DNA from: a virus
Taxonomy: Duplodnaviria; Heunggongvirae; Uroviricota; Caudoviricetes
DNA length: 64,000 bases
Strand: one strand, 5' to 3'
Virus record (IMG/VR): IMGVR_UViG_2703718862_000005
This document shows positions 31,401 to 34,400 of the stretch, piece after piece; positions within the stretch are counted from its first letter, which is position 1, and each line of letters starts with the position of its first letter. The position numbers are program-made.

Positions 31401-34400
31401 AACGGTCACGACTTCAGGTCGCTTGCCACCACGGACAGGAACGACCACAGAGCGGTCAGTCAGAGTGTGGGCAATGATTGGGGTCGGTAAGCTGTTACGG
31501 GTCGGCAGGACTTCTACAGGGAACGGGATGTTCTCTTGAGCGTCCTTAAGTACACCGTTCAGCATAGCCTTAACCGTCTTAGCTAACTGGAGGGCGTAGA
31601 CCTGCGGGTCAGCGTTAGTCGGCAGACCTTCATTGACCTGAATGTTGTCGGTATCGGTGATGCGTACTGGCTCAATGCCAAACTGGAAAGCGTCTTTAAT
31701 CGTCATAATAATCAATCTCCTAAATTAGTTTAAATACTGTGAGTCCTCAAAACTGAGGAGTCCCTAACATCGGGTCAGGGACTGTGTGTCTTATAAGCTG
31801 TCCAGCCAGTTACCGCCTGACTCAAGGTCAGCGACAATAGCGGCACGGGAGCGACCAGCGGAATGGGTAGCACTGCGGAGGTTCTCACCATAGGTCCGGC
31901 GTTCAGCTTTGACCTGTTCGCGGCGCTGTAGCTCTTTCTGCCACTCTGCATCAGTCATGTTCTCTTCACGCATGCGCTCGGCCTGAATGCGCTGCTCTTT
32001 AGCGATACGCTCAGCCTCAGCTCGCTTGTTCTGCTGGCGGCGACCATAGGCGGTCATCAGGTCATTACTGAAGAAGTTGCCAATAGCTACACCAGCTTCA
32101 GCCAGAGCTTCCAGTAACTCCATAGACTCACGGCTGGTAGACGGCAGTCCTGACAGGTAGCCCGGAATCAGGGTCTTGATAGCGAGCGACAACGGATAGG
32201 ACTGACCGTCCAGACTCACAGTGTTTTCATAAAGGTTGATGTCGGTGACTGACAGCTTCCAGTTGTTGTTGTTGAACATCATAGGTAATTCTCCTCTTGA
32301 GAGTTGAGACTATCGGTATCGCAGACGCAGTAGCGCCTACGGGTCTCCCCGCATCGGTCATCTCAAAAGGTTTTAAAATTAGGCAGACAGTTTCATAGCG
32401 ACCAGTTGCGCTATCAGCTCGTCTCGGGATTGGTGCTGGCGGGTCTCATCTTCCGGGTCTAGACCAAGCTCTCTGAGGAGGACTTCAGTCCGGTAGCCAC
32501 GGTAACGGAGAGTCATGCGGCCCTCAGGTGTGCGCGGGTCAATCATCTTAGAGTCCTCCCTTAGCGCACAGACGAACCAGCTCGACCTTGTTGGACTTAA
32601 GCCACTCGTAACCCTTGGTGAGGACCTTAAGCCCCTCCTGACCGTTATAGTGGTTATCCTGAAGACGGTAATAGCCGTTCTCCAGACCCTTAGGATTGAA
32701 GCTGGTCATCCAGCCACCTGACGAGATGTCAAATACAGGCTGTCCTCGACCGTCCAGCTTGCGACTATAGAAGGGATTAGCTATACGCCCTGACTTCAAT
32801 ACGGCATTAAGAGCCTTGGCTGATACCAGCTTTGTACCTAACCTGAAGTCGAGATTCTTAAGACACTCTGTCAGGGTGTGGCCCTGCTTCGGGTTATCCA
32901 GCTTTTCCAGCCAGTTACGGGCTATAGGCTTGAGACCCTTAAGTTCCTTGGAGTCCTGCGCCAGCGCCTTAGCTTCCGACACTTTGTCGTTACGTAAAGC
33001 GATGAAAGCACGGATGACCTTAAGGTAGAAATCAGGTGAGACCCACATCGCATAGGCAATAGCCGCCTCTTCAGTAGCCCATGTCCCCGGAGTCGAACCA
33101 CCATGAGCAACATGCAGATTTGCATCTTGGTCAAGAAGCGTCCTGACGCTAGAACGCCACTGACCCGGCTCCTTAGCAGATGGAAGCTCAAGCTCTTTAT
33201 GTAGCTCGTTCAGGTTCCACATACGGTCCTGATTACAGGCCCAGTGATAGCCGTCAACGATGACAGGAAGAACTACTTCATGCTTCATTAAGGGTTGAGT
33301 TGACATATCGTTGTACTCCTTTTGTTATGCCTCCTGAAGTCACACCCTGAAAGCCTACTCAAGCCCCCAACGATAGGGAGACTCACAGGCAACAGGAGAC
33401 ATACAGAAAGACTTGAGGTAATGAGGTCGTGTGAAGACCATGTTAACTTTTTTAACAAACCCGTTTTCTGGGTTGGTTAGACTTCTCGCCAACGCGCCCA
33501 AATTTGGACCCGTTAAGAATGGTGACTGCTCAGTTTTGGGGACGTTAAGCAGGTTTCCATTTTCGCGACCTGTGATAGAGCCACCCGTTCACGGTCCGGA
33601 AATTTCCGGAGCGGTCCTCATGAAGGTGGAGACCCATGTTAATCTTTTTAACAAACCCGTTTTCTGGGTTGGTTAGATAGCGTCTGACAGAGGAGGTCTC
33701 TTCCAGCCATATAAAGGTGAGACCGCATGTCAGGACGAGCTGTAAGGACTTCCAGATGGTGAGCGGTGATAGACCCAAATCATAATGAAGACACGAGAAC
33801 GCTAACGAGCTGGAGGTCGATACACGAGGTCTGACAGAGGCGGTCACATGCCTTGATTACTTAGGAGAGATACTTAATGTCGGTTGACCAGATGCTCGCA
33901 TGTTCTGACGCATCAGACTCAGAGGCGGAGGCTGGTCTCCCTATAGTGATAGTTTAGGGTCCGTAATCATGAACCAGCTTTACTGGCGTGGTACTGGACG
34001 GATTTACTGGCGCTGACGACGGTAGCATAGACGTAGCGAGCGTAGCGAGTTGAAACCATAGGTTCACCCAAGGCAACACGCTTACGGCTCAGGGACTCCT
34101 GTACAGCGCTTACAGTTAATGTGTCGTGCGTTAGTAGTTGGGTCAGAATCAAGTATGGGCTGACAGGCTTGGTATTGCTTGCCATTGATTCGTTCAGGCG
34201 ACCAGCACCAGTAAGGACATCATCCAGCCAACCACTCAGGTCGCCCTGACCATCGAATGACAGCAGGTCCCCGCAGTGCTGCTGCAAGTAGGCTTTGGTG
34301 AACGTGTTGTCGTGAGTTGCGATTGGTCGTGCCATAGAGTATCTCCTGTAGTTGAATTAGTTGGTTCCCCTATAGTGATAATCAAGTCCATCACTGGTGA

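Follow-up and report, generated by a model that had tools for sequence, protein, structure and literature searches.

Promoters of a K1F-class phage RNA polymerase in a putative 6.6-kb integrative satellite of T7-group coliphages

The 64,000-nt stretch of DNA from the IMG/VR virus record IMGVR_UViG_2703718862_000005 (Caudoviricetes), referred to below as the window, contains an island of 6,646 bp that splits ynfE (a paralogue of dimethyl sulfoxide (DMSO) reductase), is bounded by an 11-bp att duplication and encodes a tyrosine integrase. Two sites within this island, P1 and P2, are, judging from their sequences, promoters of a T7-group single-subunit RNA polymerase of the class found in coliphage K1F. 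We propose, with a probability of roughly 70%, that they belong to an integrative satellite of virulent K1F-like phages of the T7 group, which would be induced by the RNA polymerase of its helper. Two features expected of a satellite are found in the island: it is a small integrative element with an integrase and att sites, and it has links to a helper in the form of K1F-class promoters, sequences similar to the K1F concatemer junction and a homologue of the phage protein gp7.3. With somewhat less assurance, the balance tipping only slightly in favor, we suggest that it represents a widespread family of minimal (~6.5 kb) capsid-forming satellites of T7-group coliphages, which would sense the helper via its polymerase (many of them with two polymerase specificities) and whose mimic of the concatemer junction is split by att and would be rebuilt only upon excision.

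An earlier note on this DNA described two 23-mers that agree at every position between -10 and +3 and also have A at -12 in common; direct reading of the window bears this out at the same coordinates and adds the strand, left unstated there, which is minus for both sites. The common 13-mer TATCACTATAGGG occurs only twice in the window, on both occasions at these sites, and it is found in 0 of 100 dinucleotide-preserving shuffles of the window. The core from -7 to +2, CACTATAGG, and the G at the start are the same in P1 and P2 as in all nine promoters of K1F. Positions -12 to -9 read ATTA in P1 and ACTA in P2, versus CGAC in T7. The claim that this A-N-T-A signature is unlike those of T7, T3, SP6 and K11 holds, but the tetranucleotides quoted for T3, K11 and SP6 do not, as they are shifted by 1-2 positions with respect to -12..-9 of the respective consensus sequences; the conclusion is unaffected by this shift. 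The predicted start of P1 lies 35 nt 5' of the ATG codon of orf122, P2 stands at the head of the operon that extends from the KilA-N gene to the capsid gene, and both promoters point the same way as all genes of the island. A scan of the island for sigma-70 promoters found promoter-like sites to be no more numerous than in shuffled sequence.

Most of the IMG/VR records found to contain TATCACTATAGGGAGA are T7-like genomes of ~40 kb, among which one group exhibits GGACTAAACTATCACTATAGGGAGACCAAGAG, nearly identical to P2 with its flanks; this group corresponds to Kayfunavirus, i.e. the K1F-like coliphages. The complete genomes of K1F and vB_EcoP_F contain nine plus-strand promoters each, of the form (A/C)CT(A/T)A(A/G)CTATCACTATAGG(G/A), which occupy the usual places of T7-group promoters; one of them, at the phi10 position, separates the scaffold gene from the capsid gene. 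The comparison with promoter sets of sequenced T7-like coliphages, which the earlier note had proposed as a check, matched P2 to K1F phi10 at 22 of 23 positions, with the sole difference at -17, and the region of P2 is the same as the phi10 promoter region of both K1F and vB_EcoP_F over 25/25 nt. With a scoring matrix built from the nine K1F promoters, these promoters themselves obtain 31.7-36.0 bits, P2 34.6 and P1 21.8, the next best site in the window reaching 11.8. P2 exhibits 1 mismatch to K1F phi10, versus 8 to T7, 6 to T3, 8 to K11 and 12 to SP6, the latter four represented by textbook consensus sequences taken from general knowledge. The K1F specificity block (ACTAT at -12..-8, (A/C)CT(A/T)A at -17..-13) is fully present in P2, with 0 mismatches in -12..-8, and present in part in P1, which has T for C at -11 and G for A at -13. 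By this comparison the specificity is distinct from that of T7, T3, SP6 and K11, yet already known, namely that of K1F. What had been predicted from the A-N-T-A signature, a T7-group enzyme unlike the four classical ones and a correspondingly narrowed choice of helper, is upheld in this form (P2 falls within the K1F score range and P1 is a variant with two substitutions).

The likeness to the promoters of Kayfunavirus (T7 group, Studiervirinae) comprises the 23-bp architecture, ACTAT at -12..-8, the core and the start at G; unlike those promoters, the island copies are located in a bacterial chromosome, on an element without a polymerase gene, and P1 has G at -13 and T at -11, as in Pectobacterium phage PPWS4. 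These are the only departures of P1 from the K1F form ACTTAACTATCAC, and neither base occurs in any of the nine K1F promoters. The P1-type sequence TTGATTATCACTATAGGG is one promoter of PPWS4, of which the other promoters are ATTAACTATCAC(T/C)ATAGG; because the variant TTGATTATCAC stands alongside AACTATCAC promoters in this phage, a polymerase of the K1F class plausibly tolerates P1. Among viral contigs, the P1 17-mer was found in the PPWS4 contig (L008), in one island copy and in six contigs with a single occurrence, and not as the standard promoter of any other known phage; its distribution therefore points to no second known helper. The K1F promoter set was reportedly published together with the genome in 2005. 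The K1F recognition loop has been put into engineered orthogonal T7 polymerases (PMC11880802).

The island belongs to a family. Of 5,426 complete E. coli genomes, 312 contain its capsid module (78-100% identity), and relatives are also found in Shigella, Leclercia, Buttiauxella, Enterobacter and Citrobacter and on 60 metagenome contigs; UMNK88 and ECONIH5 are examples of strains with the island. Two integration sites are used, one being ynfE and the other a tRNA-Gly gene that adjoins the ETT2 region, and across the family the islands are of uniform size (~6.5 kb) with intact open reading frames (ORFs). A promoter census was carried out on 87 family loci (805 kb including flanks), of which 67 are at least 6 kb long. 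Over these 87 loci, all 129 occurrences of CACTATAGR fall on the gene strand and none on the opposite one, with ~6 per strand expected by chance, and a K1F-type promoter is present in 55 of the 67 longer loci. P2-type promoters are kept throughout the family; P2 is its commonest 23-mer and is invariant in 7 aligned islands where the flanks diverge, while the 23-mer of P1 is found in 16/87 loci. Given the conservation and strand bias of the promoter cores across the family, the exact match of P2 to a 25-nt phage promoter region and the absence of the 13-mer from the 100 shuffles, the explanation of P1 and P2 as chance occurrences or repeats other than promoters is effectively refuted.

In 29 of the 67 longer loci, promoters are arranged in tandem, 25-36 nt apart. 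In all 32 such pairs the downstream promoter is of the K1F type (ACTAT or GCTAT at -12..-8) and the upstream one is of another class (ACCCT, CCCCT, ACCCA, GCACT, CACCT or TACCT). In total, ~12 classes of promoter were encountered in the islands. The upstream class AACCCACACTATAGGG is the promoter type of Escherichia phage SRT7/P1723, and the class A(A/T)A(A/T)ACCCTCACTATAGG (T3/GW1-like) is that of Cronobacter phages GW1/Dev2 and Citrobacter phages SH4/SH5; the islands of Leclercia and Citrobacter have tandem pairs at both promoter positions. Two further upstream classes have been assigned no phage counterpart, AATAAGCACTCACTATAGGGG (loci L048 and L050, at ~4402), which has no exact match in IMG/VR, like the upstream promoter AAGCACTCACTATAGGG of these loci, and GATAATACACCTCACTATAGAGG (L095 and L098, at ~3219). 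They may belong to coliphages of the T7 group whose polymerase specificities are still unsampled.

Tandem promoters for two polymerases suggest an element awaiting whichever helper arrives and would be senseless in a phage with its own polymerase. This bears on the possibility that the island is a decayed integrated T7-like prophage whose promoters are fossils without a current role. Integrase-bearing T7-like phages are known from other bacteria, and the island's capsid gene beside an integrase, together with its gp7.3 homologue and promoters of the T7 group, could be expected in such a remnant. However, decay does not agree with the uniform size, gene order and intact ORFs in the 312 E. coli genomes and five other genera, nor with promoters that are invariant where the flanks diverge and whose cores share the same orientation in 129/129 cases. 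Scans with Pfam, PHROGs and NCBIfam revealed no polymerase, portal, tail, terminase or replication genes in the island, and neither genes nor pseudogenes for RNA polymerase, DNA polymerase, portal, tail or terminase were found in it. In tblastn searches of the island proteins against K1F, vB_EcoP_F and PPWS4 orf79 alone matched, the other proteins having no sequence similarity to K1F proteins. We consider a prophage remnant very improbable.

The product of orf331, located in the P2 operon, is predicted to have the HK97 capsid fold. The AlphaFold2 model, calculated from an alignment of 36 sequences obtained by a profile search for distant relatives, has a predicted local distance difference test score (pLDDT) of 85.5; it superseded a first model from 11 close homologues, which was poor (pLDDT 45). 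The Foldseek search of the PDB with this model reported 242 matches at E<=1e-3, of which the 50 best listed are shell proteins throughout, of phage capsids or of encapsulins (with one engineered nanocage derived from an encapsulin); the T7-group phages Kp9, HRP29, PhiM1 and P-SCSP1u are represented among them. At the level of sequence, BLASTP revealed no similarity between orf331 and K1F gp10, a sequence search of the PDB returned no match for orf331, and PADLOC and NCBIfam reported nothing for the structural genes of the island. The orf331 family (distant relatives P0033-P0093) comprises at least 66 cluster representatives, down to ~21% identity; 0 of the 36 aligned members match a PHROG capsid family, and one longer member contains an Ig-like domain. 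The PHROGs library of phage protein families appears to lack this capsid lineage.

The island also exhibits sequences similar to the K1F concatemer junction and terminal repeat. The plus-strand copies of GATAGGGAGAC at 33372 and 36349, listed in the earlier note as degenerate, do exist but are probably not promoter remnants: the 36349 copy, which on the gene strand reads GTCTCCCTATCTGTATCAG / TCTTTCTCTGGGTCTCCCTATCTGTATCAG, coincides with a match to the boundary of the K1F repeat that is kept family-wide. The terminal repeat of K1F is 178 bp long and its right boundary is followed by TATCTGTAT; in T7 the corresponding TATCTGTT is where the polymerase pauses at the concatemer junction, and DNA maturation requires it. 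In the family, GTCTCCCTATCTGTAT is found on the gene strand in 52/87 loci and on the opposite strand in 0, and it persists in otherwise divergent int sequence. The other half of the mimic, near attL, resembles K1F 39478..61, which consists of unique DNA left of the right terminal repeat and the first ~60 nt of the repeat. The similarity is closer in other islands (e.g. L064: 72% over 122 nt, E 5e-10, with ACGATGAGTTTTGGACCAAAAGTTAGAGACC), and this stretch is present in 12/12 related E. coli islands compared, from both integration sites. Both the junction and the repeat-boundary mimics are kept in islands from either integration site and in those of five other genera. As long as the island is integrated, one half of the mimic stands near each of its ends. 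Another copy of GTCTCCCTATC, at 33372-33382 on the minus strand 5' of the KilA-N gene, is without the TGTAT extension and is found only together with the KilA-N module, in this window and in L049.

From these features we infer the following course of events. The island would be silent in ynfE until a K1F-like phage infects the cell and makes its gene 1 polymerase, which would fire P1, leading to orf122, and P2, leading to the KilA-N protein, orf55, orf163, the capsid protein, the gp7.3 homologue and orf52, with a stop at the hairpin at 30312-30290. If P1 and P2 are read by the helper polymerase, expression of the island would be tied to infection and would therefore survive the shut-off of host transcription. 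The island would excise via its own integrase, and excision would join the halves of the junction mimic across attP. As replication origins of the T7 type are promoter-primed, the excised DNA could be copied by the helper replisome. The helper terminase would then cut at the junction mimic and package the island DNA, while orf331, perhaps with orf163 as a scaffold, would build a small head on the portal and tail of the helper, so that the island could be transferred. The packaged molecule is predicted to have its left end near 30027 (TCTAATAC...) and its right end near 36349, with the repeat spanning attP. It may be added that six island copies (39.9 kb) would fill one K1F head (39.7 kb); this is arithmetic only and we do not rely on it.

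The same promoters could alternatively act as infection sensors of a defence or abortive-infection element, driving harmful or interfering cargo such as orf122 and the KilA-N protein, in which case the decoy capsid and the gp7.3 mimic would poison phage assembly and the island would never be packaged. P1 does stand before a variable cargo slot, like the defence hotspots of other satellites: the place of orf122 (no match in Pfam, PADLOC or NCBIfam) is taken in other islands by a 155-aa ORF, a DUF4145 gene and others. The KilA-N protein weakly matches the PADLOC candidate PDC-S22 (6e-7), and a packaged form was not detected in the assemblies searched. Such an element leaves unexplained the conserved junction and repeat-boundary mimics on the correct strand, an HK97 capsid gene that is complete and shows purifying conservation from genus to genus, and the spread, by means of the integrase, to two sites and six genera; moreover, interference and transfer are not exclusive, as known satellites do both. 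We regard a purely defensive role as unlikely.

Several observations nevertheless speak against a satellite. The int gene is located 5' of both promoters, so that the helper polymerase cannot reach it before excision, and the first excision needs another trigger. P1 differs at -13 and -11 from all nine K1F promoters, and, as -11 is a key specificity position of T7-type enzymes, it may be a weak site or serve another polymerase. The junction mimic is only moderate in this island (68% over 116 nt), and the implied repeat across attP amounts to ~312 bp here and ~1 kb in the islands at the tRNA-Gly site, versus 178 bp in K1F. The candidate role of orf163 as a scaffold comes from gene order, only one island protein (orf79) is similar to helper proteins, and there is no portal, terminase or replication gene. 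The case as a whole is built on sequence and predicted structure. Finally, a free, circular or virion-derived island was not found in Logan, ENA or JGI/metagenome assemblies. The island-sized contigs from Logan, ENA and JGI that had been considered as candidates for free forms turned out to be chromosomal fragments or integrated islands; those from metagenomes are integrated copies, because all of them end ~45 nt inside ynfE.

Table 1. Sequence features of the island in ynfE (positions refer to the window)
Feature	Coordinates	Strand	Remarks
attL core CATCTGGAACT	29832-29842		attR copy at 36478-36488
K1F junction-like sequence near attL	30077->29969	minus	68% over 116 nt to K1F 39478..61, E 1e-5
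GC-rich hairpin followed by T-run, after orf52	30312-30290	minus	likely end of operon
orf52 (52 aa), last gene	30320-30478	minus	GRYQATIW...WSLAEAEQW pattern, by eye
orf79, gp7.3 homologue (in the T7 group a protein of virion/tail assembly and adsorption)	30475-30714	minus	phrog_1320, 1.8e-11; weak match to Pfam VirionAssem_T7
orf331, predicted HK97-fold major capsid protein	30720-31715	minus	AlphaFold2 model and Foldseek
orf163, directly 5' of the capsid gene	31791-32282	minus	scaffold-like by position only
KilA-N domain protein (252 aa), first long gene 3' of P2	32548-33306	minus	Pfam KilA-N, 1.3e-9; PHROG transcription regulator / Ant-like
Leader of P2 transcript (629 nt)	33307-33935	minus	two 44-nt direct repeats, 33438-33481 and 33634-33677
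P2, consensus K1F-class promoter (-17..+6)	33958->33936	minus	CCTAAACTATCACTATAGGGAGA; predicted start at 33941
orf122, variable cargo gene between P1 and P2	33967-34335	minus	phrog_23123, 1e-8 (PHROG without assigned function)
P1, variant of K1F-like promoter (-17..+6)	34387->34365	minus	ACTTGATTATCACTATAGGGGAA; predicted start G at 34370
Three direct repeats of ~83 nt each, between int and P1	34411-34640		each with GACTCACAG and AT-rich TATATATAAAG block
28-nt hairpin-forming element	34724-34751	minus	96% to vB_EcoP_F 6965-6992; 89% to K1F 38982-39008
int, tyrosine integrase (527 aa), 5' of P1 and P2	36412-34829	minus	Pfam Phage_integrase, 1.8e-13; phrog_1, 3e-42
Mimic of right boundary of K1F terminal repeat and TATCTGTAT, inside 5' part of int	36341-36370	minus	87% over 30 nt to K1F 163-190

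All genes of the island are on the minus strand, in the order int, three repeats, P1, orf122, P2, leader, KilA-N gene, orf55, orf163, orf331, orf79, orf52 and hairpin (Table 1). The halves of ynfE correspond to the ORFs 28432-29889 and 36338-37504; in RefSeq records of related genomes both are labelled as partial DMSO/selenate reductase genes. Integrative elements in ynfE have already been catalogued, without a link to any phage (PMC7192596). A search of the island DNA against 50,697 phage records returned no match.

The three repeats between int and P1 may be origin- or iteron-like, to judge by their appearance; their GACTCACAG element recalls the TCTCACAG left end of K1F and T7. The 28-nt element has its phage match 3' of the rightmost Kayfunavirus promoter, in the orientation that corresponds to the gene strand of the island. 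The first ~250 nt of the P2 leader are kept across islands with differing downstream genes, and this 252-nt leader folds somewhat better than its shuffles (z = -2.6). Within it, the 32 nt just after +8 of P2 (GCCTCTGAGTCTGATGCGTCAGAACATGCGAG, 33894-33925, minus strand) are invariant in seven islands despite differing flanks and downstream genes; candidate functions are those of an origin, a binding site or a site of RNA processing. Rfam reported no match in the leader or elsewhere in the island.

Of the remaining proteins, orf79 shares 40% identity with gp7.3 of vB_EcoP_F in a direct BLASTP comparison (E 1e-14), and a tblastn search with it against the phage collection gave no match at 1e-3. 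No significant family match was found for orf163 (T7_gp14 is sub-threshold, with E 0.013), and BLASTP detected no similarity of orf163 to K1F gp9. The pattern in orf52 resembles, by eye, AP2 or integrase arm-binding domains, with no significant match in Pfam; expressed from the phage promoter, this small protein might bind DNA or assist excision.

Among the known systems, the closest mechanistic precedent is provided by plasmids with a T7 origin (promoter) and a concatemer junction, which Chung and Hinkle in 1990 are said to have found to be replicated and packaged by T7 into transducing particles. Both of these cis requirements are seemingly present in the island, as helper promoters and a junction-like sequence; unlike the plasmids, which are artificial and are packaged as multimers into full-size heads, the island is natural, integrative and has its own capsid gene, and it is known from sequence. 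Satellite P4, whose late promoters answer to the P2 activator Ogr, and the PLE of Vibrio cholerae, an element resembling phage-inducible chromosomal islands, are similar in that satellite transcription is tied to helper gene expression, and PLE is a parasite of a virulent phage, as proposed for the island. Both use host RNA polymerase with factors encoded by the helper or the satellite, in contrast to the island promoters, which we propose to be read directly by the helper polymerase, and to the many members of the island family that carry promoters for two polymerases.

The phage-inducible chromosomal islands of Enterobacteriaceae that form capsids (cf-PICIs) are likewise small integrative satellites with their own HK97 capsid protein that borrow the rest from the helper. 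They are larger and have temperate helpers, in contrast to the 6.6-kb island with promoters for the polymerase of a virulent T7-group phage. Instead of the full head module and small terminase typical of cf-PICIs, the island has a capsid gene and a possible scaffold only; Pfam, PHROGs and NCBIfam revealed no portal, protease, connector or terminase in it. According to the report on cf-PICIs, these encode every protein required for assembling and filling small capsids of their own, and tails are all that they steal (bioRxiv 10.1101/2022.09.08.507074). Minimalist phage-inducible chromosomal islands (PICMIs) of virulent marine vibriophages resemble the island in size (~6 kb), integrase and virulent helpers; unlike it, they have no capsid-remodelling genes and are packaged as concatemers, and they are not reported to be linked to phage-polymerase promoters (PMC10803314).

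No description of a natural satellite of T7-group phages was found in the searchable literature, outside of which most subscription journals lie, so that this is absence of evidence only. The island looks like a member of a previously undescribed satellite family with a new induction logic. T7-group phages are textbook virulent coliphages, widely used in phage therapy and biotechnology. If our interpretation is true, ~6% of the sequenced E. coli harbor an element by which the phage polymerase is turned against the phage, by a new logic of satellite induction and with a very small capsid-forming system for packaging of the T7 type. One island could then answer several helper genera via two promoter specificities, and the promoter arrays would record the polymerase classes met, making the helper range readable from 23-bp promoters. 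K1-specific phage therapy is concerned as well, and so is the orthogonality that is assumed for K1F-type promoters in E. coli hosts.

Outside the island, a lambdoid prophage (40078-64000) starts right after ynfF, and therefore a second mobile element adjoins the island. Over 40078-52000 it matches the right arm of Shigella phage POCJ13 and 75/02 Stx at ~98% identity (antirepressors, EaA, Ea22-like), and the host may be Shigella or a close E. coli relative.

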